From positions 1 through 56,915 of the IMG/VR virus record IMGVR_UViG_3300007735_000758: DNA of 56,915 nt. One strand, given 5' to 3'. Position numbers and translations under genes: made by a program. Numbering within the stretch: position 1 is the first letter of the stretch; the number at the start of each line of letters is the position of its first letter. This document shows positions 3,571 through 46,900 of the stretch, in pieces. Origin of the DNA: a virus. Taxonomy: Duplodnaviria; Caudoviricetes. The notes under the pieces were generated by a model. That model saw nothing but the letters and a program-made list of their open reading frames with translations, was not told where the DNA came from and made no database searches.

Positions 3571-3840
3571 TCAACCCCAGAAGACAGTAATACGGTCAAG
3601 AGCCGTAGCGGAAAGATAGATGTCGGTAGAAAAACGAACGCCCTGCCCATTCAATGGCACAGGGAAGTTGGCGTTAGCACCGTATCCAATCTCAATTTTA
3701 GTAGTGCCACCAGACCCACCGTCTTTCATGGTAAGAACGCCAGCCTGCTGAGAGTGGATTATAATGCAGCATACGCGCCCAGGGCCTTGAAAGACATAGC
3801 CGTTTGCTGTCATGCACTTCGACTGAAGATCACTAGTCAT
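3571..3840 (-). CDS. Small beta-rich virion-module protein
   Basis: 89-aa ORF tightly packed in the operon. Confidence 0.7.
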   Translation of the reverse strand: MTSDLQSKCMTANGYVFQGPGRVCCIIIHSQQAGVLTMKDGGSGGTTKIEIGYGANANFPVPLNGQGVRFSTDIYLSATALDRITVFWG

Positions 3841-4180: not shown

Positions 4181-4675
4181 TTAGAACGTCACACTACCCA
4201 TGCTGTAGATCGTCACAGCAGCGGTGCTTACATCGGTAAAGTTTACGAGGAAGTCCTTCTGCGCGTTCTGAGCAATCGTCATCGTACCGCTCAGGGTGAG
4301 GCCCGTGTTTGTCGTCATCGTAATCGTCTCAGCAGCGTCAGCCGTGTTGCGGATTGTGACGATAAACGAGGTGCCAACGACAGCGCCAGGAACAGCGGCA
4401 AGGAGGTCGGCGGCAGTCGGGAAGACATCGCTACGACCAGCGCCGTTCGGGTCGCGGAGGATAAACCCAGTCTTAAGTTGCGCCGGGGTGTAGGTCACAA
4501 CGCCAGCCGTGGTCACCGTGGCTGGGTTCGCCTCAAAGAACGGGACACTGGAGGTGTTCAATACAACACCAGTACCCTGGGCGCTAAGAGTCAGCGATAC
4601 ATTCGAGGAATCATTGCTATAGCCCTGGAAACCATTCTGGCTTCGTACGGGTCCAGTAAACGAAGTGTTAGCCAT
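4181..4675 (-). CDS. Putative capsid decoration/structural protein
   Basis: 164 aa, Thr/Ala-rich, N-terminus MANTSFTGPVRSQNGF, directly downstream of the major capsid gene; SD AAGGAG. Confidence 0.7.
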   Translation of the reverse strand: MANTSFTGPVRSQNGFQGYSNDSSNVSLTLSAQGTGVVLNTSSVPFFEANPATVTTAGVVTYTPAQLKTGFILRDPNGAGRSDVFPTAADLLAAVPGAVVGTSFIVTIRNTADAAETITMTTNTGLTLSGTMTIAQNAQKDFLVNFTDVSTAAVTIYSMGSVTF

Positions 4676-19890: not shown

Positions 19891-20480
19891 GCCTCCGCTA
19901 CCGCCTCCAGCATCAAGCCACCAGGGCTAACATCACCATCCATGTTAGTAACATCAGAGTAAGTGGTAGTAAGTGAGTTAGCGCCATGCGTCTCCATGTT
20001 ACCAAGTAACATAGTTAGTTTGGCTCGCAACACATCGCCGAGTGACTTATTCAACTCAGCATTACTCTCGTTTGATGATGGCTCTTCGAAGATACTCGCG
20101 TATCTTGTTTTACCTACAAGCTCTAGTGCTTTCAGCCTGGTTATGTCTGAATCGGTGTTAGTTGCGGTATTAGTGAGGCCGTCCATGACGAACTTACGGA
20201 GCCTGGTCTTATCCTCCCACCAACTTGCCATTCTCTCCGCCTCCATTGCTTGTATCGCTACCGCAACATTAGGCTTCTTACTAACCTTCACCGATTGCAC
20301 TCTACCAGCGTTTGCGTTCCCATTCCACTTATACGCTTGCCTGTAGGCTTCCGCCTTACTAAGCCCTCCAAACACCAACCCCTCTGCAAACTTTCTCTGT
20401 TTCGGCGTTAACTTGCCTACTATCTCCTCTAGCGTGAGTTTCTTTCCATCCTGATAAACCCTAGTTACTTTGTTACTCAT
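19863..20480 (-). CDS. terS: Terminase small subunit
   Basis: LTPKQRKFAEGL...AEAYRQAY HTH, KPNV..AI and RLKALELVGK. Confidence 0.8.
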   Translation of the reverse strand: MSNKVTRVYQDGKKLTLEEIVGKLTPKQRKFAEGLVFGGLSKAEAYRQAYKWNGNANAGRVQSVKVSKKPNVAVAIQAMEAERMASWWEDKTRLRKFVMDGLTNTATNTDSDITRLKALELVGKTRYASIFEEPSSNESNAELNKSLGDVLRAKLTMLLGNMETHGANSLTTTYSDVTNMDGDVSPGGLMLEAVAEAPTGVGEGE

Positions 20481-20612
20481 GCGACTATATTAACACATAT
20501 TAATCTATCCTTTCGCATATAAGGAAACACGCGCGCGCGGTTTCCTTTAATCGCAAAAAAACACCAAACGAAAATTGCGGCGGCGGGCCCCACGAGCGCT
20601 ATTTCCGATAAG

Positions 20613-20706
20613 TCCTTTGTTTTCAACAAAACCCCCGAAATCTGGGACTTTTTTGGGAGAACATTAAAATCCCTCAATAATCGCTATCTCGTTGAAAACA
20701 AAAGGA
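20613..20706. repeat. Inverted repeat pair
   Basis: TCCTTTGTTTTCAAC (20613-20627) / GTTGAAAACAAAAGGA (20691-20706); perfect 12-bp core. Confidence 0.8.
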
Positions 20707-20760
20707 TTGGCCGGATGGACTTTCCTATAAACGGCGTGATTGAATAGTTGACAGTGGTGA

Positions 20761-21024
20761 CGCCGCCGCCTCAGGGCTGATAAACGTAAGCCGACCATCA
20801 CGAAATAGCCTGGAGAGACAACCAGGCGACAGCACGCCAAACGGACAGTTTGTGATGCTGACTGAGTCAGGAAAAACCTTGCAGCCGCTTTAGGGCAGAT
20901 AAACGTAAGACGAGGTTGTTCGATGTTGACGGTCAGCGGCATGGGCGGATGTTCCCCTATAACGTGCCGATGTGTCTTAGCATATAATCTCGCCGCCGCC
21001 TCAGGGCTGATAAACGTAAGCCGA
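20761..21024 (+). repeat. Module A, 34 nt x3 (20761-20794, 20880-20913, 20991-21024)
   Basis: CGCCGCCGCCTCAGGGCTGATAAACGTAAGCCGA; copies 1 and 3 are identical, copy 2 matches at 28/34. Confidence 0.95.
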
Positions 21025-21179
21025 GCTTACAAGCTAAGATTCTCTCAGCCAACTACCAGTTAACGGAGTAAGTCACTAGGTAGACGTTGATCGTATCCAA
21101 TAGGAAACCCTCACGCGCAAGTAACAACGTGACGTTAAAGCCATAGCCTATGGCTTGTTGAGCAATAAATGCACGCGTT

Positions 21180-21484
21180 GCCGAAATAACAGTAACCATA
21201 ACGGTGAATACATAGTAGGCGCATAAGCATAGCATTTAGCGGAGAAACACGCACCTACGGGAGCATCCGTCTAACGCATAATTGAACACTATAGGCACAC
21301 TGGTACTAACGTGTAAGTGATCCGGTCACTTACAGTCATATCATGTTGGCGCGTGGTAAAGGTAAGCGCCAAACAACGCAGAAGCGATAGCAAGTGGAGC
21401 GGGACAGGCGCGCTGATATATGGCACTCCGTCAGTAAATCAGAGCCGAAATAACAGTAACCCTAGCGGTGAATATACAGTAGGC
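21180..21484 (+). repeat. Module B, 41 nt x2 (21180-21220, 21444-21484)
   Basis: GCCGAAATAACAGTAACC-n5-GGTGAATAYAYAGTAGGC; 37/41 identical. Confidence 0.95.
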
Positions 21485-21670
21485 CAGAATTGAATAGGAA
21501 CTATATATTAGATTAAACGCGAATAAGTTAAGTAGCGAGATAGTAGAAAAAGCCAAATCTATAATGGGTCCGGTGCAAACTGGACCCATTTACCATTTAG
21601 CAACTAAATAAAGCCACATTCTGACAAGTGTGGCTCTATGTAGTTTCTAAACTACCAACAGGAGACAATT

Positions 21671-22348
21671 ATGACAACATACCACATCACGATGAAATCA
21701 CAGAACGGTAAAACCGGACCGATTCCGGTTACCACTACTAGTAAAGAAACTTGTTTCACTGGTTGCGGGCAGTATGAGAACTGCTACGCGAAACAGGGGC
21801 CTCTGGCGCTCCACTGGAACAAAGTCTCTGACGGGTCGCGCGGAATGACCCTGGCGCAGTTCTGCGCCGCTATCGAATCGCTTCCCGAGGGTACGCTCTG
21901 GAGACACAATCAAGCCGGGGATCTCCCCGGCGCTGATGGTAACATCGACCGCCGCGCATTGACAGATATCGTGATCGCCAACCTCAACAAACGTGGGTTC
22001 ACCTACACCCACAAGCCCATGACGCAGGAGAACGCCGGGATCGTGAAGAACGCTAACGCGCTTGGGTTCACCGTGAACTTGAGCGCCGATACCGTGGCGC
22101 AAGCTGACGAGTATGTATCGCTGGGCGTTGCTCCGGTAGTCCTCACAGTGCCGGAAGATACCCGCGCCAACTTCACCACTCCAGCGGGGAATAAAGTCGT
22201 AATCTGCCCCGCCGAAACCAAGGGCGTGACCTGCGCCGATTGCAAGCTTTGCGCGTGGTCGGGCCGGAAGGCTATCATCGCTTTCCCCGCTCACGGATCG
22301 AAGAAGAAGGCCGTCACCGCCGACAAGGTGTTTAACATCATCGCATAA
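21671..22348 (+). CDS. Gp88-like Cys-cluster phage protein
   Basis: NGKTGPIP, TCxxxCxxxxxCYA, RHNQAGDL, FTYTH and C-terminal CP....TCADCKLC; SD AGGAG. Confidence 0.65.
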   Translation: MTTYHITMKSQNGKTGPIPVTTTSKETCFTGCGQYENCYAKQGPLALHWNKVSDGSRGMTLAQFCAAIESLPEGTLWRHNQAGDLPGADGNIDRRALTDIVIANLNKRGFTYTHKPMTQENAGIVKNANALGFTVNLSADTVAQADEYVSLGVAPVVLTVPEDTRANFTTPAGNKVVICPAETKGVTCADCKLCAWSGRKAIIAFPAHGSKKKAVTADKVFNIIA

Positions 22349-22401
22349 GGGCTGACAACAGCCCCAAGTGGTATCAACAAAGGGTAGCTACGGCTACCCT
22401 T
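22349..22401 (+). promoter_or_regulatory. Tandem hairpins upstream of csx16
   Basis: GGGCTG-ACAA-CAGCCC and AAGGGTAGC-TACG-GCTACCCTT (cUNCGg loop); no U tract. Confidence 0.55.
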
Positions 22402-22433
22402 GATTGGTGACACTTCACCTATTGGAGAAAGTT

Positions 22434-22757
22434 ATGTATATCATCATTTCGCGGCACCCTGCCGCTATCGATTTCATCCGCGCCAACGATGCGCGGTTTT
22501 TGACGGCGCCCGTCATCACGGGCAACGCCACGCCCGAAGATGTTCGGGGCAAGGTGGTAGCGGGTAACATCCCGCTATCCCTCGCCGCACTAGCAGACGA
22601 GGTCGTCGCCGTGGAGTTCTCCGGCGCACCGCCTCGCGGCGCGGAGTACACCGCCGCCGACATGGTCGCCGCTGGTGCGCGTCTGGAAGCGTATGTGGTC
22701 AAGCGCAGTATTGCGTTTGACTACTGCGTCACGCACTCGCGAGCTGACGCATTTTAG
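22434..22757 (+). CDS. csx16: Csx16 (Cas_VVA1548)-family protein; candidate cA4 ring nuclease / anti-type III CRISPR
   Basis: ISRHPAAIDF...VVAGNIPLSLAA...RGAEYTAADMVAAGARLEAYVV matches the recalled Csx16 pattern SRHPGA...VIGTLP.HLAA...RG.EL...GARL..Y.V; SD GGAG. Confidence 0.75.
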   Translation: MYIIISRHPAAIDFIRANDARFLTAPVITGNATPEDVRGKVVAGNIPLSLAALADEVVAVEFSGAPPRGAEYTAADMVAAGARLEAYVVKRSIAFDYCVTHSRADAF

Positions 22758-22820
22758 TCGAAACACGGGTATAACCCGTGTCTGCGGGAATTAGCCTACC
22801 CGCACTGAAGAGACAGGCTA
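22757..22820 (+). ncRNA. Type II hammerhead ribozyme with 3' pseudoknot
   Basis: GUC-GAAA, stem III CACGGG/CCCGUG, UC cleavage site, stem I UGCGGG/CCCGCA, CUGAAGA-GAC. Loop I UAGCCU pairs with downstream AGGCUA. Confidence 0.9.
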
Positions 22821-22834
22821 GGAGGATTGATTGT

Positions 22835-23089
22835 ATGTTGAATAGAAAGACCGTACGCGCCGCCAGGGTGCGGTTTGTTGAGGCGCTGTACAAGCGCCAC
22901 GCTGTTTCTGGGCTCCGTCAGGGCTACGATATCGCCCTGACTATTAGCATGAGAACAGGCGTCCCCGTGGCCGCTATCGTGGCTACCAAGGGTGAAGATA
23001 GCCTGACGTGGGGGTCATCCAGGATCAAACGCCACAAGGCGTGGAAATCGCTATTGCTGGAAGCAGACTTATTACTGGAGGTGGACTAA
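22835..23089 (+). CDS. Hypothetical basic protein
   Basis: SD GGAGG at 22821-22825, ATG at 22835. Confidence 0.65.
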   Translation: MLNRKTVRAARVRFVEALYKRHAVSGLRQGYDIALTISMRTGVPVAAIVATKGEDSLTWGSSRIKRHKAWKSLLLEADLLLEVD

Positions 23090-27462: not shown

Positions 27463-28356
27463 ATGTCTATTCTTTCTGAGAAAGCGATCCTCGTCCGGTT
27501 CTCTGTCGCGCAATGGACGGCGCGGAAGTTCGACAAGAAGGCCACTGCCGAGGTCGAACAGAATCACGGCGCAAACGCCAACGCTGGGGAGGTAGGCCGC
27601 TTCAACAAGCAGCTTGCCAGCAAGCGGTATATGACGGAATTGTCCAGCAACATCTCGCTGGCACGGGCGTGGCACTACGAGCAGACGCTCCCTTGGCATG
27701 ATGCCGAGGGCGTCCGCATCCTCCCTGTCGCCAACTTCAACAAGTACCAGGAGGAGATGTCCAAATTTAGACAGAAGCACGAGGAGGCTCTCAATACTTT
27801 CGTCAAGCAGTACCCGGACGTAATCAACGAGGCCAAGTATCGTCTCAACGGTTTGTTCAATCAGGATGACTTCCCGCCTGTCGAGTCCATCCGTAGCAAG
27901 TTCTCGTGGGAGATCAGCTTCTCCCCGGTGCCTGAGTCTGGAGACTTCCGAGTTGCTTTAGGCAAGGATGTGATGAAGCAGATGGAGCAGGATTTACAGA
28001 AGCGTTTGTCACACAACTACAACTCCGCTTGCGTCGATCTCTTCGAGAGGGTCCAGCAACAGTGCCAGCATATGCACGAGAGGCTGACGGGGTACACGGG
28101 AGAACGTGCTGGGGCCTTCCGCGATTCTCTTGTAGAGAACATCCGGGAGCTTGCCTCTCTTCTTCCCCGGCTGAATGTCGGCGGCGATGAGCGGCTCGAT
28201 AGCATCGCTCGTCGCATCGACGAAGAGTTGTGCCAATACGATGCCGACTACCTGCGGGAGAACGACTCGACCCGCAAGGATGTCGCCACCCAGGCCAAGG
28301 TACTTGGCGACGAGGCCGAAGAGATCATCAACCAGATGAAGGGGATGTTTGCGTAA
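27463..28356 (+). CDS. DUF3150-like alpha-helical protein
   Basis: W.ARK.DK...TLPW...G.RILP...FRDSLVENI; lies between MoxR and vWA genes. Confidence 0.7.
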   Translation: MSILSEKAILVRFSVAQWTARKFDKKATAEVEQNHGANANAGEVGRFNKQLASKRYMTELSSNISLARAWHYEQTLPWHDAEGVRILPVANFNKYQEEMSKFRQKHEEALNTFVKQYPDVINEAKYRLNGLFNQDDFPPVESIRSKFSWEISFSPVPESGDFRVALGKDVMKQMEQDLQKRLSHNYNSACVDLFERVQQQCQHMHERLTGYTGERAGAFRDSLVENIRELASLLPRLNVGGDERLDSIARRIDEELCQYDADYLRENDSTRKDVATQAKVLGDEAEEIINQMKGMFA

Positions 28357-29537
28357 TGTCGGAAGCCTCAAAACGTATCGTACAAACGACCGTCCAGATG
28401 GCAATCGGGGGCGAGATCTTCTTCGGAAGTCTCGCTCTCCGGTACGATTGGCAGGCTGACAAAGCCTGCCCTACCATGGCGACAGACGGCAGACGGTTCT
28501 ATTACAATCCTGACTTTGTCCTATCCATTACTCAGGAAGAACTCAAAGCGGTCATCATCCACGAGATCATGCACGTTGCTCTCATGCATCCGTTGCGTAT
28601 CAAAAGCCACGACCATCGCAAAGCAAACATCGCGATGGACTTCGCTATCAATATCTTGATACGAGATTGTGGGTACAAGCTACCGTCTATGGCGCTGCTG
28701 GATAATCGGTACACAGGCATGGCATGGGAGCAGATCTACAAGCTGCTCCCTCAGCAGCAGAAGCAGAACCAACCTAGCAACGGTCAAGGACAAGGGCAGG
28801 GTCAACCCAGCCAGGACCAAAGCCAAGGCCAAGGCCAGCAGCAGCGTGACTACAGCAACGGCGATGTCTTGAGTGCTGGTGGTACAGCAGAGGAACGTGC
28901 TGACCTGGAGCAGCAGATCATGACGACCGTAGCGCAGGCCGAACAGACTGCGCGAGTAGCAGGCAAGATGCCGGGAGCTTTGCGGGATCTTCTCGTACAA
29001 GTGCGTGAGCCAGAAGAGGATTACCGTTATCTCTTCCAGAAGTTTATGGCACCCATCTTCCCGGTAGACTACACATGGCAGCGCCCGTCCCGGCGTTTCA
29101 TGGGTCAGGGTATGTATATGCCTTCACTCTTGAAAGATGGCGTAGGCAAGCTGGTAGTCGGGCTGGACACATCTGCTTCTGTATCTAAAGCAGAACTAGA
29201 GATGTTCCTGGGGCTGATCAATCACTTCCTCACCAAGGTCAAGCCTGAGAAAACACACCTGTTGTACTGCGATACTACCGTGTACAAGCACGAGATGTTC
29301 AAGCCAGGACAACCGATGGATGTCAGCGAGTTCCAAGCACAGCGTGGCGGCACTCGCTTCCGTCCAGTGTTCGATTATTCCAGCGAACACGACCTCAAAC
29401 CTAAAGCGTTTGTCTACTTAACCGACATGGAATGCGACGACTTCGGGCCTGATCCAGGCGTTCCGGTGTTGTGGTTCCAGGTCGGCAACTACAAGAGCCG
29501 CCCTCCCTTTGGGGAGGTCATCCGGCTTAAGAGCTAG
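28356..29537 (+). CDS. Metallopeptidase-vWA protein (DUF2201-like)
   Basis: ATDG...YNPDF, HEIMH, N.AMD..IN; MIDAS-like DTSAS, GGTRF.PVF, LTD. Confidence 0.88.
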   Translation: MSEASKRIVQTTVQMAIGGEIFFGSLALRYDWQADKACPTMATDGRRFYYNPDFVLSITQEELKAVIIHEIMHVALMHPLRIKSHDHRKANIAMDFAINILIRDCGYKLPSMALLDNRYTGMAWEQIYKLLPQQQKQNQPSNGQGQGQGQPSQDQSQGQGQQQRDYSNGDVLSAGGTAEERADLEQQIMTTVAQAEQTARVAGKMPGALRDLLVQVREPEEDYRYLFQKFMAPIFPVDYTWQRPSRRFMGQGMYMPSLLKDGVGKLVVGLDTSASVSKAELEMFLGLINHFLTKVKPEKTHLLYCDTTVYKHEMFKPGQPMDVSEFQAQRGGTRFRPVFDYSSEHDLKPKAFVYLTDMECDDFGPDPGVPVLWFQVGNYKSRPPFGEVIRLKS

Positions 29538-35131: not shown

Positions 35132-35517
35132 TCAACGATCCCTTTATGCCGGAAAGCATGACGGCTAAAGGGGAGCATGGAGAAATCGTACAGAAGAGAG
35201 ATGCTAGCGCAGCGATGTATCGCATCGCTGCAACGATCTCCACCAGTCTCAAGTTCCTCCCCCTAAAAGCAGTTAAACTATCCATCATCAAAGAGGATAC
35301 ATACGGCATCCAGGACTACAGTGCGTTCCTAGATGTTTGCGTTCGCATCCTCTGGAGGGCTGGAGTAATCGACTGCATGACAGGATCCAGCGTAAAGTCT
35401 GTCGAGATGACACACAACAAGACAGACCGGAGGAAGGTTGTCATCCTGGTCACCCCTCTTAAAACCCGAGAAGTTTTGATAGACCAACTCGAAAACGAAG
35501 CGGCAACTCTGATTTGA
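35053..35517 (+). CDS. Hypothetical protein, possibly a degenerate RusA fold (start uncertain)
   Basis: LKAVKLSI...QDYSAFLD...L.RAGVID...V...KVVILVTP. Confidence 0.45.
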   Translation: MGNPDAIAEEPEERILPRKGQPIRIIINDPFMPESMTAKGEHGEIVQKRDASAAMYRIAATISTSLKFLPLKAVKLSIIKEDTYGIQDYSAFLDVCVRILWRAGVIDCMTGSSVKSVEMTHNKTDRRKVVILVTPLKTREVLIDQLENEAATLI

Positions 35518-38500
35518 GATCTTTGATCTCAGAAGAAAGCGAGACGATCTCTTCTTGAATAGAGTTGAGTTCGTCTCGTTTCTGTTCTGGAGACATATCT
35601 TCAGCCGCAAGAACAGTACGCTTCATGCGGTTCAATGCTTGAACCCGTTTCAGGGTAGGCTGAATAGCCTTGTCGATGTACAGCATAGAGCGAAGCTCAT
35701 CCTGGCGCTCAGGAGACATCTCCCTCTGCCCTCTGGATACTGCTCTCAGAGTGGCTACTGCCATATTCGCAGCCTCATCCAGCTCGTACAGATCCTCGAC
35801 AGCCTTGCGTCCATTAGCACTGCGGAATAGCTGACCGATCCCAGGAAGAAGGTACGGTTCGCTAAAGCGAATACGCTCAGGCTTAGGAGCAGCTTTGCCT
35901 TCTTCGAGAATCATGCCGATAATATCAGCGGTCATAGCGCCAAGAGATCCCGTATAACCACGAATCAAATGATCCAGCTTTACTGGGGATACACCCATAG
36001 CTTGACCTGCCATCTTATAAACCTCAGAAGTGTATTCGGTGTAACGCTCTTCAGGAAGAAGCCGTTGAAGATAAGCGTTCTCGATAGGCTTCTGAGTGTA
36101 CATATCAAAGTTGGCAGTATGCTCAAAGTACGGACGAAAAATTTGAGGGATAGGGTTCATGCTTAACGTAGCAAGCAATCCACGAGCCATTGCATCTACT
36201 AATTCTGGGCCATCATCCAGGCCCCTATAGTAGGAAACCAATCTCTCAGGGAACATCTTAGTAACAAGGCCAAGCTCCTGAGGGATGGGAAACTTTAAGA
36301 CAGTTCCCTCTTTTATTCCAGGAATCCAGTCTATAGGAACAAAGATATTACTATCTCGCTCTTCATCTGTTGCATTCAGCCAAGCCTTAGTGCCTGAGAT
36401 TAAAACAGCATAAACCCCCGAAAGAGCAGAGACGTAAGCCATTCGGGTATAGACCGCTTTCTTTGAACTTCCTGTCAGTTCAGTAGGGATCATCTTGTCG
36501 CCCTTCAGGGTGCGATAAGCAACATCTAAACCCTGGAGCCGAGCATTAAAGAATGGCAGCAAAGCAATCGCTACCTGCGCGCCACGAGATGTGCCACGCC
36601 GAGAGAAGTTAATAGTCTCCATCGCGGCGAACAAAGCCTCCGCTTCATCTCCAGTCTTTTCTAATGCATTTTTGTATGCCTGAACACGACTGATTCCTTC
36701 AGACTTATCTGCTGCATTCTCAAGTATGTCGTAGAACTTTTTATAGAAAGCTCTCTGCTCAACTCCAATCTTTTCTCGAATTGATTTTGCAGCAGATGCA
36801 ATGTTTTGAGTTCGAATGCCAGACCCAGCAATACCAGCACCTTGCAGCGCACGGTATTCAGGAGAGTTTTGCAACACAGAAGTAATGCCTTTAACGTATT
36901 CGCCAACAGGAGGCGTAAGGTCAGATCCAAAGCCGCCCTGCATCCATACCTGTAAAGTATCTCGAATTGGATTTTTTAGAATAAACGAAGGAGTCGTAGT
37001 AACCCCGCGCCGAAGTGCTGTAGTAAACGATCCCATCATCTTCAGCGCATCCTGCACCGGGATAGTAGACTTTGCAACGGCATCGTACACCAGCGGATCA
37101 TCAACCTGATAGAACTTCTTGACACCGTTCTCTCGAATGCTGATGACATTCGACCCAGGATCTTCCTTGGCGCGACGTTTAGTCTTCTCGTCGATAGGTA
37201 GTTCTTTTATATACCCAGTTGTAATGCCATCCCTTACGATTCGTTCACCTGCTACGTTCTTCATAGCAGTGCCGATCATGAAGTAGGTGTTGTAGATGAT
37301 GTTCTCCATGGCATCGTTGACACGGAGGTTGCGCCCAGACAATGACTTTGCGGCAGCTAGATTCGTCGCCTTTGTTCCAACCTTCGGCGCGTCCACCTCT
37401 CCCGTTTCAACGTCTCCATCCTGAGTCTTGACAGTAGGCAAACGATAGAAAGGAATGTAGTAGGATTGCTTCCACGACTCTGCCATTTTTTTGTCAATGA
37501 AACCACTCTTCCTTAAGACATCAATCAAGTTATCGTTGAATGCCTTGAAGCGTTTCATTGCATCGTCGATGACTTTATCGTCCTTAAAAGCATCCCATGT
37601 GCGTCTGACATCCTCGATCTTAACTACGCCACCAGGATCTCTGTTTTGTCCTTCCGCAAGATCCAGGTAGCGCCGAGCATATGCTGCCTCAAAGAACTCT
37701 TCCAGCTTGTTAGCAAACCCAGATTGAGATGCAGGCATAGCAGCCAACTCTCCAAAGAGTTTGATCGGAGAGTTCTTTTCATTCTCTACAGCACGAAAGA
37801 TACTTCCGTCATAAGAGAAGCCGCCAAACTCCAAACCTGCCATCGCAATGTCTTGCGCCTTATCGGAGAACAGGAGAGCCTGATAAGCACCGGATGCAGC
37901 AGCAAGGTACTTCCTGTCACCCGTTTGCTCGTATGCTTTAATTGCCCATTCCTTTACAGGATCATACCGATCCAAGAACTTCTGCCGGAAAGAGGAGCGA
38001 CGATCAATCGAGAAGAAGTTGTAGATCTTGTCTACCAAGTTCTCTTTAGAGCGAGGAGAGAAAGCCCGGACCAACCCATCAGGAGTAACAGAAGAAGAAC
38101 TTGAGGCAGAATCCTCATCCTCTGCTAAAGAATACATAATATCTTTAGATGAAGAAGGAGAGCCTTTACCACTATAGGTAATAGCAAACTCAGGTTTAAG
38201 TAATGAAGATGAAAAAGGAGTAATTTTTTTCCTTCTTACTGGAGAAAAGTTGATTCTAGATTCTACATCTCTAGACTCAATTTCCCCGGCAAGCCTATTG
38301 TACAAATGCCAAGACTCCGGGCTTTTCTTCAATACTCTTTTTATATCTTGGATGTTGGACCCACGAAGAATACTTCTCTGGTCTGATGCCCTTGCGATTT
38401 CGTTTTCCAAATCATATCGCGTAGATGATATGTATTTCTTTACTCTGTCATCGTAAGTGTCAGATGGTCCCGCAGAAAAAGGATCTCCACTATCAATTTT

Positions 38501-41500
38501 TTTGAATGCACCCAAAACTTGCTCTGCCAAGAAACGCTGATATTCACGGTTACCCGCCTTGTAACCGTATAAATCAAGAACGCTTTTTGCATATGGCAAG
38601 AGATTGCTTATTCCAGTATAAGGATCGTAAGTGTTAGAGTTATCAAGTATTTCATTTTTAAATGAAAGAAGCATAGTCTGGACTGGCGTTAAGAAATCAA
38701 CACGATCTTCCAAACTGCGTATATCCTCATTAAGCCTTCTCTGCATTGAGGTTGCGGTAAGTTTGATTAGTTTGTCAGAAGCAAACTCAACAGCTACTTC
38801 ATTGTTGCCACCACTTGCAAACCCCTCTTTGTCCTGAATCCAATGCTGCACTTCGTGCATGAGAGTTGATCTCTGCTGTGCAGCAGACTGGCTTGGGTTA
38901 ATAACGATAGCACTTGCATCAGGAACAAAAAAACCCATTGCGTCAATATCATTTAGCTTGAAAACCTTGATGTTCATCAGCTCTGGGTAAGCATCAAACA
39001 ATTCAGGATGATCTAATGCCTCTGCGAGAGTAATACTTCCAAAAGCTGAATAGGGATCTGTTTCGCCTTGTGAGCGCGAGGGCATTTTGAGAAAATCATC
39101 GGTCAGTCTTGCTGACTTGTCTTCAATCTCAAACCTCAGCTTCTTGTCGTATGGGCCTTTGAACCAGCCAGTCGCGAGTCTAATTTGCTCAGGGGTCTTG
39201 CCTTCGGCTTCCATTTGCGAAGCAGCAGCCTTCCGATATGCCATCGTTGCTGATTTTATTGGGTCTGCCTCGTAAGCATTCTCCCCAAGAAATGCGTACA
39301 AAGCCTCTTCTACGGCTTCGTCTTTCTTTTCGGTTGATTTGTTTTTCTGCTGTTTAATTTTACCTTTAGCAGCTTTAGGTTTTTCGGTAGCTACTGGCTC
39401 AGGTGCAGGGCGAACAAACTCAGCAACCTTCCCCGCCGCTGGAATCTTTATCTCCCGTGGTGCAGAGATCTCTTTCCCGGTAATCGTCTGCTCGTAGAAA
39501 GGGGTAAAGCGCCTGCCTCCAATCTCTCCAGACTTGACAGCAGCCAGCACATCCTCAGCCGAGGCATACCCCATCTGTGCAGCAGTGCGACCAAACCCAA
39601 GGAATGCTTCAACTTTTTTGACGAGGCTCTTCGCTACAGGGTCCAACCGTTTAGGATCTACGTTAGAGAAATCAGCAGCAGCTTTAGCAATTGCTTCTTC
39701 CTGCAACAAGCTATTCAAGTCTTTTCGGCTAGCGTAACGATTCCGATAAGCCTTCTCTCTCTCTTCTCCCAAGTACGAGATCTTGAATCGGGTAGTCAGC
39801 ATCTTCCATTCAGCATCGGAAAACAGATTCAATGCCTTCATGCCATGAATAATTTCATGGTCAAGGGTCTTTATCATGTCATCTTTAGTGCGAACCTTGC
39901 CTTCAGGAGAGTATGCAAGATAGATAACTCGATTCAGGTATTGACCATTTGCTGGCTGAACATTCCCCTTTGCATCAAGCAACGCATTAGAAATGCCGAG
40001 AAGAAATAGATCCTCAGCCTTGCGCTTCTTTAGCGCCGCAACAAGATCCGGCGCATACTGCGCTGCAATCTTCTCATCGAACTCAGGTTGCGTTGTCGTA
40101 GTTTGTGCAATGTTGAACAACTGTTCCCCAGTAGGCTGAGGCTGAGGAGTGGGTTCAACCATTTCATACAGAGGGCCTTCAGCCTTAGGCTCAACAAAAT
40201 ACTTTGGCGCTCCTTTGCCCTCTACTTCTTTAAGATCTCCACGCTTCCGCATCAACGCCATCATGCTATTAGCAGCAGGGGCAGGGAGATCAAACGTCTT
40301 TTTAATATAAGTCGTGGTAACAGGAGTGTCAGGGTTAGCCTGCAACACATCCAATACTTGTCTGTATTTAGCTGTAGTGAAGGGCATCCCTTCAAACTGC
40401 TTGCGCTCCAGCATTTCTTCTGGAGTTATCTGGAGGCTTCTAATGTCTCCTTCATCAACTAACTTGCCTACAGTCTCCAGTTCTGAGACAGAGGGAGTAG
40501 CCGAAGGGAAGAAGCTAGGAGTGCTGAGTTTCTCAAGAGGCTTCCCGTAGATTGCCTGCGCTGCACGTTTCTGCCTTACGTCTACAGGCTCAACGCTAGA
40601 TCCCTCTACCCCCATTGCGGTACGGATCTCAGCTTCCTCTACAGCGTCTTGATATTCTTTCTGGTTCAGTTGAACCTGAGTATCGACGAGAGCAGACAGT
40701 TCAAGTTTCTGGTTATCGTTCAGCTTGCCGAGAGATTTATTTAGCTCCTCCCGAGCCAGATAAGAAGCTATTGGGTAGTTATCCTGAATGTTCTTGTTGG
40801 CCGCAGTCAGTTTCTCTTGGCGCTTGTACGTCTCCTCCAGCATGAGATCGACAAACGTAGGGATGTCTTTAGCTTCTACGTCAGCCAAAGACTCAATACC
40901 CATCTGAGAGAAGACAGTATCTGCTACCTCAGGGTTTTGATTGACAAACTTAGTAGCGTCTTTCAGATCCTTCTTAGCTTTAATCTCCAAGCCTTTTTCG
41001 TAAAAAAGACGAGAAGCCTCGTTGGATCTTTGAGTTTGTTCTTCTAGTTCTTGAAGTTGCTTATCAGCAAAGTCAATATCCTGCTGCGTAGCTCCAGCAG
41101 GGAGAGTAATCATTCTCCCGGAAGGAGCCACGACTTGCGTATATTCTCCACCAGGAGGTAGCTGCTTCTGGAACCCAGACTTCTGCTTCTCTATTTCTTG
41201 CTCAATGTACGCACGACCAGCCGCCCGTCCAGCCTCCTCACTCTCTATACGGCTTTTCTCTACTTCTTGAACGACTTGTTCGATTTCTTCATCAGTTGCA
41301 TTTGACCTAACAGTAACGGTCCCTACCCTTGTATTCACATCACGAACAGAGCCACCGGGAGGGAGTAATCCTCTTATGCCCTCAGGAACTTCTCCTGCTT
41401 TGGCAATAGACTCTTCAATCTTCCTTACGCCTTTCTCTTTCGGCGTCTCCCTGTCTACAACACGCTGCTTTCCTGTGACAGGATCAATGAATACCGTAGT

Positions 41501-42592
41501 CTGTGCCGCAGTCTCTGGCGCGGTAGGAGGAGCCGATAGTTCTCGATTCGCTCTTGCCATTGCCCTTTCATTCGCAGACTTAGCCTGCTTGGCCTGGAAG
41601 ATCTCTATCCCGCCCTGAATTGCAGTACCACCCAACCCTCCGGCAATCAAAGACTCCTTCAGCCCTTCAGTAATCTGCTGCTCAGGATCATATGCGTACT
41701 TGGTAATTACATTCTGAAGAGTATTCTGCAACCCTTCTACCGGAGACTCTAAGGCTCCAGCCTGGAGCGCAGACTTTACCCTGGCACCCGTCCCAAGGTT
41801 GGCAATAAGACTGTCTTTCTGACGCGCCAACTCCTCTGCTATCTTCACAGCAGCTACGTCTGGTGCTTCTCCTGCAAATCTTTTCTCGATACCCTTAACA
41901 ACATCAGGAGCCAGTTCTCCTGCCTCTCTAAACAAACGTCCAACAAGAGGGAGCTTCTGCGCGACAGGAGATCCAAGCATCTTTCCTAAGGGAAGGGCTT
42001 CCAGAGCAGCAGAACCTGCGCCAGCCAAAGCAGACAGACCTGCTTCTTCCGCTTCGGAGATCTGCTTGCCTGCTTCTCTCGCTTCTGCAATCCGTTGAGA
42101 CTGCTCCCCCGCTCCGCTTAATCCCGATACAGCAGAACCAATGCCAAGAGCAGCACGACCACCAAGCCCTGCAACCTTAGCCAATACGCCTGGGGTGAGG
42201 TAGGTAGCAAGATTACCGACAAGACGACCTCCAGCACCCCCCAGGCTTTGGCGCTGTTCTTCGTCAAGCAGTTCTTTGGATATGTCCTCTCCGAATTGAG
42301 AGATGCCTTGACCTGCCTGCTTTAATGCGTCAATCGTAGTGAGAGCGCCGATGCCTGATACGGTACTGCCAACGCCCTGCGCGATACCTTCAGGGATGCT
42401 GCCTAGAAAGGCACCAGCTTGGGAAAGAATACCGGGAGAAGGAGGTTGCTTCTTGGGCGGCGCAGGAGGAGCGGGAGGAGAAAGTAAAGACTTATCTACC
42501 TGTTCGCTAACGTACCTCTCTAGATCAACTCCCTGCAATTCAACAGGGACACGCATCAGACCAAAGCCGTTAACGTATACAACCTTTTCCAT
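35459..42592 (-). CDS. Large polyvalent ejected protein (zincin domains, LPD23-like, LPD38-like)
   Basis: 2377 aa; HEIIH, EQIRLATGWFKG.DKKLRFEI, HEVQHWIQDKEGFASGGN, LAGEIESR, INFSRRG...PFFNARLQG, SPVKLDHLIRGYTGSLG. Confidence 0.8.
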   Translation of the reverse strand: MEKVVYVNGFGLMRVPVELQGVDLERYVSEQVDKSLLSPPAPPAPPKKQPPSPGILSQAGAFLGSIPEGIAQGVGSTVSGIGALTTIDALKQAGQGISQFGEDISKELLDEEQRQSLGGAGGRLVGNLATYLTPGVLAKVAGLGGRAALGIGSAVSGLSGAGEQSQRIAEAREAGKQISEAEEAGLSALAGAGSAALEALPLGKMLGSPVAQKLPLVGRLFREAGELAPDVVKGIEKRFAGEAPDVAAVKIAEELARQKDSLIANLGTGARVKSALQAGALESPVEGLQNTLQNVITKYAYDPEQQITEGLKESLIAGGLGGTAIQGGIEIFQAKQAKSANERAMARANRELSAPPTAPETAAQTTVFIDPVTGKQRVVDRETPKEKGVRKIEESIAKAGEVPEGIRGLLPPGGSVRDVNTRVGTVTVRSNATDEEIEQVVQEVEKSRIESEEAGRAAGRAYIEQEIEKQKSGFQKQLPPGGEYTQVVAPSGRMITLPAGATQQDIDFADKQLQELEEQTQRSNEASRLFYEKGLEIKAKKDLKDATKFVNQNPEVADTVFSQMGIESLADVEAKDIPTFVDLMLEETYKRQEKLTAANKNIQDNYPIASYLAREELNKSLGKLNDNQKLELSALVDTQVQLNQKEYQDAVEEAEIRTAMGVEGSSVEPVDVRQKRAAQAIYGKPLEKLSTPSFFPSATPSVSELETVGKLVDEGDIRSLQITPEEMLERKQFEGMPFTTAKYRQVLDVLQANPDTPVTTTYIKKTFDLPAPAANSMMALMRKRGDLKEVEGKGAPKYFVEPKAEGPLYEMVEPTPQPQPTGEQLFNIAQTTTTQPEFDEKIAAQYAPDLVAALKKRKAEDLFLLGISNALLDAKGNVQPANGQYLNRVIYLAYSPEGKVRTKDDMIKTLDHEIIHGMKALNLFSDAEWKMLTTRFKISYLGEEREKAYRNRYASRKDLNSLLQEEAIAKAAADFSNVDPKRLDPVAKSLVKKVEAFLGFGRTAAQMGYASAEDVLAAVKSGEIGGRRFTPFYEQTITGKEISAPREIKIPAAGKVAEFVRPAPEPVATEKPKAAKGKIKQQKNKSTEKKDEAVEEALYAFLGENAYEADPIKSATMAYRKAAASQMEAEGKTPEQIRLATGWFKGPYDKKLRFEIEDKSARLTDDFLKMPSRSQGETDPYSAFGSITLAEALDHPELFDAYPELMNIKVFKLNDIDAMGFFVPDASAIVINPSQSAAQQRSTLMHEVQHWIQDKEGFASGGNNEVAVEFASDKLIKLTATSMQRRLNEDIRSLEDRVDFLTPVQTMLLSFKNEILDNSNTYDPYTGISNLLPYAKSVLDLYGYKAGNREYQRFLAEQVLGAFKKIDSGDPFSAGPSDTYDDRVKKYISSTRYDLENEIARASDQRSILRGSNIQDIKRVLKKSPESWHLYNRLAGEIESRDVESRINFSPVRRKKITPFSSSLLKPEFAITYSGKGSPSSSKDIMYSLAEDEDSASSSSSVTPDGLVRAFSPRSKENLVDKIYNFFSIDRRSSFRQKFLDRYDPVKEWAIKAYEQTGDRKYLAAASGAYQALLFSDKAQDIAMAGLEFGGFSYDGSIFRAVENEKNSPIKLFGELAAMPASQSGFANKLEEFFEAAYARRYLDLAEGQNRDPGGVVKIEDVRRTWDAFKDDKVIDDAMKRFKAFNDNLIDVLRKSGFIDKKMAESWKQSYYIPFYRLPTVKTQDGDVETGEVDAPKVGTKATNLAAAKSLSGRNLRVNDAMENIIYNTYFMIGTAMKNVAGERIVRDGITTGYIKELPIDEKTKRRAKEDPGSNVISIRENGVKKFYQVDDPLVYDAVAKSTIPVQDALKMMGSFTTALRRGVTTTPSFILKNPIRDTLQVWMQGGFGSDLTPPVGEYVKGITSVLQNSPEYRALQGAGIAGSGIRTQNIASAAKSIREKIGVEQRAFYKKFYDILENAADKSEGISRVQAYKNALEKTGDEAEALFAAMETINFSRRGTSRGAQVAIALLPFFNARLQGLDVAYRTLKGDKMIPTELTGSSKKAVYTRMAYVSALSGVYAVLISGTKAWLNATDEERDSNIFVPIDWIPGIKEGTVLKFPIPQELGLVTKMFPERLVSYYRGLDDGPELVDAMARGLLATLSMNPIPQIFRPYFEHTANFDMYTQKPIENAYLQRLLPEERYTEYTSEVYKMAGQAMGVSPVKLDHLIRGYTGSLGAMTADIIGMILEEGKAAPKPERIRFSEPYLLPGIGQLFRSANGRKAVEDLYELDEAANMAVATLRAVSRGQREMSPERQDELRSMLYIDKAIQPTLKRVQALNRMKRTVLAAEDMSPEQKRDELNSIQEEIVSLSSEIKDLKSELPLRFRVGLSKLLGF

Positions 42593-43953: not shown

Positions 43954-46900
43954 CTACTTGTTCAAATAGTTGAGGAGAGAACCAGCACCTGCGCTAACCA
44001 GCCCACTCAACCCACCAGCAGCAGGGCGCTGGAACTGAACGCCTTCTACCTGCATACCTGTCGGCACTCCACCCAAGATTCCCTGGAGGAAGTTCATCTG
44101 CTGATAGGGGAAGTTCTGCTGATTGATGAAGTCTTGATAGGCAAGATCCAAAGCCTGCTGAGTACGAGCATCAACCGCTCCTCCAGCCTGCTGCATCGCA
44201 GCAAGACGCTGGAGTTCAAGCTGTTGCGCCATACCAGGAATACCCATCATTGTACCTCCCAGACCAGCAAGCCCAGCAGCACCAGCCTGAGCCTGCTGCA
44301 TCGCTGCTAACCGATTCTGGAAGCCACGCTGACGAGCAGCTTCCTGCTCCGCAGAAGCCTGTTTAATTGCATCTAACTGCATCTGCCACGTTGCCAGATC
44401 TCCAGACTGAGAAGCCTTCGCAGCTTCCAATCCAGCTTGTGTTGCCAACTGCTGGGTAGCAAGAGCAGATTGCAGGTTGCCCTGTCCTGCTGTCAGCCCT
44501 GCCTGTTGATTCGCTAGCTGGGCCTGTAGAGCCTGCTGTGCAGCAAGCTGCTGCGTCCCTAGACGAGCAGCAAGGTTCTCTCGTCCTGCGGTAAGACCCG
44601 CCTGCTGATTCGCAAGAGCCGCTTGGAGGTTCTGAGCAGACTGACCCCGAAGGATATCTGCCGTTGTACCGTACTGCGTAAGCCCTGCCTGCTGCCGTGC
44701 CTGTTGGTTAGCGAGAGCAGCCTGAAGACCAGTTTGAGTGCCAAGCTGTTGAGTGGCAAGTTGAGCGCCCAAATTCTCTCGTCCAGCCGTAAGGCCAGCC
44801 TGTTGATTCGCAAGGGCAGCTTGAAGATTTTGAGCGGATTGCCCTCTAAGAATATCAGCCCTTGTGCCATATCCAGTAAGATTAGCTTGCTGTGCTGCCT
44901 GCTGATTAGCCAATGCAGCTTGAAGAGCCTGTTGAGATCCAAGTTGCTGAGTTGTAAGATTAGCGGCAAGGTTTTCCCTTGCTGCGGTCTGTGCAGCTTG
45001 TTGATTAGCAAGAGCAGCTTGAAGATCCTGAGCGGATTGACTTCTGAGGATGTCTGCTCTGGTGCCGTATTGAGTGAGGCCAGCTTGCTGTGCTGCCTGC
45101 TGATTAGCGAGAGCAGCCTGAAGACCAGCTTGAGTTCCTAGCTGTTGGGTAGCAAGTTGAGCGCCCAAGTTTTCTCGTCCAGCCATAAGGCCAGCCTGTT
45201 GATTCGCAAGAGCGGCCTGAAGGTCTTGAGCAGACTGAGAGCGAAGGATATCGGCTCTAGTGCCGTATTTAGTAAGATTAGCTTGCTGTGCTGCCTGCTG
45301 ATTTGCAAGAGCGGCTTGAAGACCAGCCTGGGTTCCCAATTGCTGGGTGGCAAGCAAAGCACCCAGGTTCTCCCTGCCTGTCGTAACACCAGCCTGTTGA
45401 TTGGCAAGAGCAGCCTGCAAGCCAGACTGTACGTTAGCTTGCTGCGAAGCAAGAGAAGCAGCACGATCTCTTTCAAACTGTGCTTGTGCATTCTCGAATG
45501 CTCTCTGCCTACCTATTGCTTCGATGTCTCCAATCTGACGCTGGAGTGCTTCCTCTGCCAGCCCTTCCTGAATAGCCTGACGGCTACCTCCGAAGGCACC
45601 AGCACGGACAGCAGCAGCACTACGGCCAGCTTTCTGCATCGCAGCTTGGCGGGAGGCTTCTCGCTTCTGTACATCCGTTACGGCATCCATATACGGAGAC
45701 ATATACTGTTCAGCCTGAGGCCTGCCAAAAGCGTCTACGCGAGTACGTTCAGCCGCAACTCGCTCCGCTGGACCCATTTGGAATTGCTGAACTTGAGGCA
45801 CCCCTTCAACCTTGAATCCAGAAACATCTCCCAATGCGGATAAAATATCTCTCGTTTGCCCAGTAACTCTTTCTGGCCCCTGCATCTGGAACTGCTGGAC
45901 CTGAGGAACACCCTGCACCTGAGCAGATTGCAAACCTCCAAGAATCCCAAGAATGTCTCTTGTTTGACCAGTTACCCTTTCAGGAGCAGCAATTTGGAAT
46001 CGCTCTAGAGAAGGAATAGGATCAACTCTAGCGCCCTGAATGCCACCAAGAGATCCAAGAATGTCTATGTTTTGCCCAGTTACCCTTTCAGGCCCTTGCA
46101 TCTGAAACTGCTGAACCTGAGGAACGCCTTCAACCTGCGCTGCGTTAAGCCCACCCAGCCTGCCCAGGATGTCAATGTTCTGACCAGATACACCCATTGG
46201 TTCAGCCATCTGATAATCTTTCAAGTTTGCGGCAGTTACCCCGGTGGGAGCTTGTAAGGTAGGTGCCATCAAAGGATCTATTTTGATTGGACCCTTGAAT
46301 CCCATCTCCTTAATTCCAGGCATCAGGCTCATCAGATAGCTTTGCTGTTCCGGCGAAGCCATTGTCTGCCCAAGGAAATCTCTACCAGCAGCAGCCGATT
46401 CCCCTGCGATGTCGGTAGCAAAGTTGATGCTCCTTACACCTTTACCAAAATCAGTCCCGGCGCTGATCTGTCCTTCGGGAGTAAAGATACTGGGGAGACC
46501 ACCAGCTCCGCGCAAAGCATTCAGCGTCATGTCGCTTGCTTTGAAACCAACGCCAGGAGCATATTGCCCAAACTCAAGAGGATTCTGAGTTGTTCCGAAC
46601 TGCATAATCCTCTGCTGTCCGTATACAGGAGGAGGATTAAAAATGTTTGGGATCCCAGAAGTGTTAACATTCGGGTTTGCAGCAGCAAACAAATTCTGGA
46701 ACCCACCCATAGAAGGCTGAGAAGCAAAGCCAACCCCACCGGGGTTAGGCCCAGAGAATCCACCCGTCTGCTTTCTGATAGCACCACCCTTACGGTAGTT
46801 TCTTACCTTGCCATCATCTCCAATATCAAATTGAGCAAGAGAACCACCAGAAGCAAACCCCCTGCCAAAGTAAGGGACGACTGGTTTCTGCTCAAGTTCT

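Follow-up and report, generated by a model that had tools for sequence, protein, structure and literature searches.

Why should a phage genome with neither a Cas10 gene nor a CRISPR-like array encode a small protein that resembles Csx16, and what would the phage gain from it? Type III CRISPR complexes synthesize cA4 through their Cas10 subunit upon sensing phage RNA, and the cA4 then activates CARF effectors such as Csx1, Can1/2 and Cam1. Most type III CRISPR loci depend on cA4 signalling, and viral enzymes that destroy this signal can defeat type III immunity whatever its subtype. To our knowledge, viral destruction of the cA4 signal has so far been shown for AcrIII-1 and AcrIII-2 only. The gene considered here, which we call csx16-like, raises the question of whether a further family of viral proteins does the same.

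The setting of the gene is well defined. The window, by which we mean the whole stretch of DNA that was analysed, is an entire virus record (56,915 bases) that is classified as a complete genome with direct terminal repeats, and an exact 127-base repeat stands at the two genome ends. A PHROGs scan of 37 of its 77 called ORFs recognized a large terminase, portal, major head protein, tail fibre and primase/helicase, and in addition Erf, an exonuclease, a Holliday-junction resolvase and a dUTPase; no tRNA genes were found in the genome. Judged by terminase and capsid, the closest deposited phages share 47-67% protein identity with it, and they comprise the pelagiphages HTVC027P and HTVC023P, phage 023Pt_psg01, phage DSL-LC04 and the cyanophages MinM2, Pag-Yong1 and Pra-JY27. 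Similar DNA occurs in 20 public runs from 10 studies, labelled as freshwater, drinking water, sediment, estuary or viral metagenome, and the csx16-like gene itself is covered by contigs in each of four water metagenome runs, which belong to four studies. A preliminary description of the locus, made from the DNA letters, had noted that no cas operon or array accompanies the gene, and this holds for the complete genome: neither Cas10/Csm1 nor Cas10/Cmr2 finds a match at E <= 1 anywhere in the 56,915 bases, no CRISPR-like array is present among the 17 tandem-repeat rows of the genome, and no Cas family besides the csx16-like gene emerged from the PHROGs scan (37 of 77 called ORFs) or from a Pfam scan of 33 ORFs.

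Several other features of this genome deserve a record in their own right. Two giant ORFs occupy the minus strand of the structural region, at 35459-42592 (2377 aa) and 43954-48393 (1479 aa); the larger matches only PHROGs of unknown function, and the smaller holds 198-nt tandem repeats at 44575-45414 (4.2 copies, 75% matches). A 435-aa protein at 28230-29537 carries conflicting labels, being DUF2201_N metallopeptidase-like plus VWA-like in Pfam and 'HNH endonuclease' in PHROGs. About 1.2 kb (20480-21670), which separates the leftward small-terminase gene from the rightward gene string, is devoid of any ORF longer than 92 aa and may be a control or origin region; a sigma-70 scan yielded nothing beyond expectation.

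The first thing to settle is whether the csx16-like ORF is a gene at all. Its coordinates are given in Table 1 with those of the features around it. A longer in-frame alternative, from a TTG at 22404, would give 117 aa, but the start at 22434 is favoured because relatives begin at MY(I/V)IISRH. Across six pairwise comparisons among the window gene and three close relatives, dN/dS lies between 0.10 and 0.14 with dS up to 0.83, and the frame is therefore that of a protein under purifying selection, a real and constrained gene rather than a chance ORF. The four motifs that had been picked out by eye in the 107-aa protein are all there (S6-R7-H8-P9; G44-N45-I46-P47..L50-A51-A52; R68-G69-A70-E71; G81-A82-R83-L84..Y87.V89), and they turn out to be the top-conserved columns of a family alignment of 239 sequences, in which conservation reaches 0.94 at S6, 0.98 at R7, 0.99 at H8, 1.00 at both G44 and P47, 0.98 at R68, G69, E71, M77 and G81, and 0.97 at Y87. 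The gene is also unusual in composition, with a G+C content of 62.3% (GC3 72%) against 50.9% for the genome, which ranks it within the highest 1.4% of windows of 324 nt; a foreign origin may account for this, or else the Ala/Gly/Pro/Arg-rich composition of the family. Scans for promoters and terminators gave nothing beyond expectation near the gene, with two promoter-like sites seen and 2.8 expected. Among the 24 runs listed there is no RNA run, and two runs labelled RNA-Seq are probably DNA.

Table 1. Position of the csx16-like gene and of the features flanking it, in window coordinates.
Feature	Coordinates	Strand	Basis and remarks
DUF7227 protein gene, 225 aa, Cys-rich	21671..22348	+	Pfam PF23872, E 5.5e-87; upstream neighbour in the same gene string; context only
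Imperfect inverted repeat (23-nt arms, 78% complementary, 9-bp perfect core)	22366..22415	.	Between the DUF7227 gene and the csx16-like gene
Shine-Dalgarno-like GGAGAA	22424..22429	+	Read off the sequence; GGAG at 22424-22427, 6 bases 5' of the ATG
csx16-like gene, 107 aa	22434..22757	+	ORF and translation (ATG at 22434, stop codon ending at 22757, 107 codons plus stop); PF09652 match, hhalign, dN/dS, AlphaFold2 model
76-nt intergenic element with perfect 8-bp hairpin (22763-22781) and the next gene's ribosome site	22755..22831	.	Right edge of the csx16 module

By homology, the 107-aa protein is a member of the Csx16 family. Its match to Pfam PF09652 (Cas_VVA1548/Csx16) scores 35.2 bits against a curated cut-off of 25, with an E-value of 1.5e-8, and aligns residues 4-89 with positions 2-90 of the 91 in the profile; a six-frame search of the whole record also calls PF09652, at 34.7 bits, and the Pfam scan of the protein returned no other family at E <= 10. 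The NCBIfam model TIGR02620 (Csx16, hypothetical equivalog domain) covers the same part of the protein, yet its 17.5 bits fall far short of the 46.35 that its cut-off requires. Comparison with the Csx16 profiles, which the preliminary description had proposed, has thus given a divided answer: the protein belongs to the Pfam family and is not an equivalog by NCBI's rule. PHROGs has no family for it, the best E-value being 0.029 to an unrelated profile of 629 positions.

A more sensitive view comes from the comparison of whole alignments. The profile of the phage branch to which the window protein belongs (alignment A2) was compared by hhalign with eight type III-associated cellular Csx16 sequences, all from one phylum (alignment A4), and the two align at 98.8% with E 1.2e-16 over 91 columns at 27% identity, which, with the Pfam score, upholds the original description of the protein as Csx16-like. 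The columns common to both sets read (V/I)SRH.(G/A)A, G(T/N)LP.HLAA, RG.E and ARL..(Y/F).V, and S6-R7-H8, R68 and E71 fall opposite residues that are invariant among the cellular sequences (R9-H10, R73 and E76). One familiar residue differs: the histidine of LP.HLAA is a serine (S49) in the window protein. Among the 239 family members this position is His in 56% and Ser in 19%, and it is Asn in one of the eight cellular sequences. Of 134 candidate homologues (90% clusters), 116 are homologous at E <= 1e-3, and 114 have PF09652. Length varies within the family, in that 53 of the 239 collected homologues reach at least 160 aa, carrying up to about 240 additional residues at the N- or C-terminus (e.g. 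P0150, P0168, P0206 and P0209). No partner domain was found in the 38 longer homologues scanned, 37 of which gave PF09652 only and one no Pfam family at all.

The cellular sequences against which the phage protein is measured were drawn from 401 genomes of the phylum of one MAG labelled Alphaproteobacteria, and 18 of these genomes have a TIGR02620 match, at 87-128 bits. Around each of eight such loci we took 20 kb and scanned 76 of the 95 ORFs of at least 150 aa, the 19 omitted ones lying at the stretch ends. All eight have type III cas genes or CARF effectors within 10 kb: six contain a Cas10 match (Csm1 or Cmr2), the seventh has Cmr3/4/6, Cas1 and a TM1812-family protein, and the eighth has a Csm6-family protein.

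Structure prediction gives a compatible picture. The AlphaFold2 model of the window protein (pLDDT 85, pTM 0.71) and that of a cellular Csx16 (pLDDT 91) have the same order of elements, strand-helix-strand-strand-helix-strand-helix-strand, and in the window model the loop that links strand 1 to helix 1 carries S-R-H. This strand-1 loop is the 'Motif I' that contains the catalytic His of Csx15 and the catalytic Ser of Crn1 (PMC13148439). The 107-aa protein is predicted to be a small alpha/beta, perhaps CARF-like, ring nuclease. Foldseek searches of the model against PDB and BFVD found no match with E < 0.2. Scores in the fold search are weak, Rossmann-like domains score alike and also top the list for the cellular control model, and the matches are generic, with resolvase catalytic domains and receiver domains among them; the fold search is therefore consistent with the homology and is not an independent proof of it.

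One search result pointed in quite another direction. When the branch profile was run against PDB sequences it matched dozens of designed ankyrin repeat proteins (best E 2.1e-9), and residues 36-52, DV.G..V.GN(L/I)PLHLAA, do look like the ankyrin pattern D.NA.D..G.TPLHLAA, which would make the protein a single ankyrin-like protein-binding motif and no enzyme. However, the single stretches score 4-8 bits with none significant alone, the total being a sum over the repeats of the target, and cellular Csx16 has the same motif. No Pfam ankyrin family matches at E <= 10, and the model is an alpha/beta protein with a five-strand sheet rather than a helical repeat. We have rejected this explanation, which strikes us as highly improbable.

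What, then, would a phage Csx16 do? According to Hoikkala et al. 2025 (PMC12409355), purified Csx16 degrades cA4 fully to linear products in EDTA buffer, and leaves cA3 and cA6 untouched even at tenfold more enzyme. The same paper confirms two points on which the preliminary description had relied, that Csx16 is a ring nuclease (acting on cA4) and that AcrIII-1 belongs to a different family. Taken with the homology set out above, these observations lead us to believe that the window protein is probably a stand-alone cA4 ring nuclease, that is, an anti-type III CRISPR enzyme. For example, consider a phage of this kind in a host with type III immunity. Two subunits of the protein would come together as a CARF-like dimer, and cA4 would be bound on the face formed by the S6-R7-H8 loop, the G44-N45-I46-P47 turn and the P66-P67-R68-G69-x-E71-Y72 loop. 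No metal would be needed for cleavage, which would convert cA4 to linear di-adenylates, by analogy with cellular Csx16. Once the cA4 is gone, activation of the effectors would fail and the phage would replicate, which would constitute the anti-CRISPR effect.

The original proposal of a candidate new anti-CRISPR therefore survives in its main part, with a ring-nuclease anti-CRISPR being the best reading of the sequence evidence, and loses some of its novelty, since Hoikkala et al. 2025 (PMC12409355) already report two genomes with Csx16 in a collection of 28,114 phage genomes and viral ring nucleases are by now an established class.

The agreement with cellular Csx16 is not complete, and its gaps suggest where the activity might depart from the cellular model. 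At 27% identity and with the TIGR02620 cut-off missed, the phage protein may differ from cellular Csx16 in substrate or rate, and if the LP.HLAA histidine matters for catalysis, the window copy, with its serine, could be slow or a mere binder. The protein might bind or cleave some other cyclic nucleotide, whether cA3, cA6 or a CBASS/Pycsar-type signal, or act as a non-catalytic sponge, and it would still be an anti-signalling protein, though one with another target or mode of action. The branch is indeed deeply split from cellular Csx16 (100/100) and below the equivalog cut-off, it has near-invariant motifs of its own (N45 and E61-F62-x-G64-x-P66-P67), and His49 is not conserved in it; related small CARF proteins vary as well, with Csx15 very slow and first suggested to be a sponge, and Crn4 broad-spectrum (PMC12409355, PMC12830947 and PMC13148439). 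At the same time, the residues that the branch has in common with cellular Csx16 are the expected ligand-site ones (S-R-H, the G.LP turn and RG.E), the sole tested Csx16 is strictly cA4-specific (PMC12409355), and nothing here favours another ligand. We regard this alternative as unlikely, though serious enough to be kept in mind. The early suggestion that the phage protein possibly also acts on CBASS signals we have dropped: no support for it was found, and the specificity for cA4 of the tested enzyme, which persisted at tenfold enzyme (PMC12409355), speaks against it.

The neighbourhood of the gene bears on a further explanation, namely that it encodes a small Rossmann-like protein for the phage's own replication or regulation and has no part in host defence. 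The gene does sit in an early/replication gene string with a sliding-clamp-like gene 1 kb downstream, most of its neighbours are of unknown function, and generic fold matches such as those to resolvase catalytic and receiver domains would suit such a role. But the homology to Csx16 is specific and significant, with no other Pfam family at E <= 10, close relatives swap the flanking genes and retain the csx16-like gene, and the small module moves among phages of very different size (on contigs from 4.6 to 193 kb), a spread that fits an accessory gene better than a core gene. A role in replication or regulation is, in our view, rather improbable.

The way in which the flanks are exchanged can be followed in some detail. 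Five related IMG/VR contigs carry the csx16-like gene at 86-95% amino-acid identity. Three relatives (L002, L004 and L006) have unrelated genes in place of the DUF7227 gene and keep the csx16-like gene, and in L006 a GP88-family gene lies two genes 5' of it. Nucleotide homology with L002 and L004 starts at window position 22365, the foot of the inverted repeat, which we infer to be the left edge of the shared module, and contigs of two sequencing runs (X6 and X7) join 21548 to 22366, bypassing the DUF7227 gene. On the other side, the homology of L006 to the window is limited to 22433-22829, which is the csx16-like gene plus the 76-nt element. This element is single-copy in the window and occurs twice in L005 (at 3656-3730 and 3' of csx16, i.e. 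on both sides) and twice in L006 (at 2645-2711 and 4320-4396, around the GP88-plus-csx16 pair); from its sequence and placement, it looks like a boundary sequence for module exchange. With the gene retained while its flanks swap, and with recognizable edges, it has the behaviour of a small module that moves about within an early region of mosaic make-up. Such behaviour is compatible with an accessory counter-defence gene and is not proof of one.

Three further observations belong to the same neighbourhood. At least 597 proteins in IMG/VR are related to the DUF7227 protein, at 50-60% identity. A possible csx16-less variant, suggested by a joint from 22428 to 22839, was set aside as too weak, as a single contig (run X7) shows it and its shorter side extends over just 30 letters. 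A search of plasmids gave a single match, a 671-aa 'Csx16' fusion protein of Allomeiothermus silvanus plasmid pMESIL02 (L031, NC_014214.1, 11464-14013), whose N-terminal, Csx16-like part is 38.6% identical to the window protein; its gene adjoins one for an ankyrin-repeat protein, among small genes of unknown function and others for ParB, Rad52 and RNase H, outside a CRISPR locus, and it may be a plasmid anti-defence gene.

The window protein is one of many. Clustered at 50% identity, the branch to which it belongs comprises at least 709 clusters, of which 389 match it at E <= 1e-10, and many of these clusters are 50-69% identical across a 90-residue core. A maximum-likelihood tree was built from the eight cellular sequences, the window protein and a random draw of 60 branch members (90-135 aa); in it, a long branch with 100/100 support parts the cellular set from the rest, with the bootstrap incompletely settled and the cellular set representing one phylum. 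N45 and E61-F62-x-G64-x-P66-P67 are near-invariant in the phage branch and absent from cellular Csx16, and they allow the branch to be sought at the DNA level. A strict DNA pattern for EFxGxPPRGxEY, which we estimate to be carried by about 70% of the branch, found 18 loci in 2.9 million viral contigs (the carriers ranging from 4.6 to 193 kb) and 3 loci in 185,579 species genomes; the proteins encoded at these 21 loci are all true homologues. The three species-genome loci are MAG contigs, on which PHROGs matches 3 of 45 ORFs, and one of them is a truncated copy whose sequence also occurs in a 193-kb IMG/VR contig. A pattern search of genome contigs, built from branch alignment A2, had none of its 32 pattern matches confirmed.

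Profile searches give the same distribution. Run on the 401 genomes, the branch profile recovers the 18 cellular Csx16 proteins at 31-56 bits and the truncated copy in the centre genome, and it finds no branch-type copy in the other 400. In the nearest ESM Atlas clusters (293, 55 and 53 members), 83-88% of the few members for which a record exists are labelled viral. Of 97 ORFs lying within 2 kb of 14 branch loci, not one matched a Cas family apart from PF09652. A few of the neighbours at these 14 loci are HTH, Arc or TetR regulators: in a 79-kb viral contig (L023, 1737-2326) an Arc/ribbon-helix-helix gene lies directly 3' of the csx16-like gene, and HTH or TetR genes lie near three further copies (L011, L013 and L014). 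By analogy, such an arrangement recalls anti-CRISPR-associated regulators.

Deposited phages are strikingly different in this respect. In 50,697 records, from which the window's own or a near-identical record may be missing, tblastn with the window protein or with branch member P0083 found no match, and a megablast search with 6 kb around the gene found none among deposited phages either. When a cellular Csx16 was used as the query for the same 50,697 records, the sole virus to appear was Methanobacterium virus Drs3, in two records. Within the searches made, then, the branch is confined to uncultured viruses. Since the two branch queries found none of it in deposited phages, it would have escaped earlier surveys of phage ring nucleases, which worked from cultured-phage collections: one is the survey of 28,114 genomes, and a second 2025 paper, which looked through that collection for CARF or SAVED proteins of short length, reports a single candidate (PMC12751052).

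These results also bear on how the gene came to be in a phage. The preliminary description had supposed that the phage captured a host off-switch. With 27% identity to cellular Csx16, a score below the equivalog cut-off and a deep, virus-borne branch of its own, the protein gives that idea no support; any capture would have to be ancient and may have run in either direction.

Overall, what was already known is that Csx16 has ring-nuclease activity and that Csx16 occurs in phages; what is added here is the large virus-borne branch. Full-text searches turned up neither an assay of a phage Csx16 nor an account of a viral branch of the family. For the single locus the advance is modest, amounting to a credible and cheap-to-test candidate of a known class. 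For the branch, the stakes are higher. We consider it an attractive possibility, to which we would give a little less than an even chance, that this large, virus-restricted Csx16 sister clade, with its clusters, its own invariant motifs and its spread over phage contigs of 5 to 193 kb, could, if active, be the commonest ring-nuclease anti-CRISPR of uncultured bacteriophages and in effect a third AcrIII family, and that the branch-specific residues may tune its speed or substrate range. A positive assay of one 107-aa protein would extend a function to hundreds of phage gene clusters, and activity would suggest that counter-defence against type III systems is far commoner in environmental phages than the cultured collections show.

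It is useful, finally, to place the window protein among the systems already described. It resembles cellular Csx16 (PF09652, TIGR02620) in Pfam family, motifs, order of secondary structure and a size of about 100 aa. It differs in its 27% identity, the missed TIGR02620 cut-off, the separate branch in the tree and the N45 and EFxGxPP motifs, and it differs in context too, residing in a phage genome without Cas10 or array, whereas all eight of the sampled cellular copies lie beside type III genes. The closest parallel among deposited viruses is gp03 of Methanobacterium virus Drs3 (103 aa, annotated 'Cas_VVA1548'), likewise a stand-alone Csx16-family gene in a tailed virus. Drs3, however, is an archaeal virus, and its protein was matched by the cellular Csx16 query (29% identity, E 0.01) and not by the two window-branch queries. 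The two Drs3 records may be the two Csx16-bearing phage genomes counted in PMC12409355.

Viral ring nucleases as such are an established anti-CRISPR class, in which AcrIII-1 and AcrIII-2 are shown and Crn4b is proposed (PMC12751052 and PMC12830947), and like the members of this class the window protein is virus-encoded and has no cognate CRISPR locus, although it is known here from its sequence. AcrIII-1, or Crn2 (DUF1874), was the first viral ring nuclease anti-CRISPR and was tested in vivo, whereas the role of the window protein is argued from homology; the two are not of one sequence family, PF09652 being the sole Pfam family that the window protein matches at E <= 10. Csx20, a stand-alone cA4 ring nuclease related to Csx16, is equally absent from the NCBIfam scan of the protein at E <= 10. 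AcrIII-2 and Crn4b set the precedent for a phage anti-CRISPR that is related to a cellular ring nuclease or cOA sensor (PMC12751052; PMC12830947), and each is built differently from the window protein. AcrIII-2 is a two-lobed viral SAVED protein working head to tail (PMC12751052), and Crn4 has a novel fold and broad specificity, with Crn4b comprising its phage and plasmid homologues (PMC12830947).
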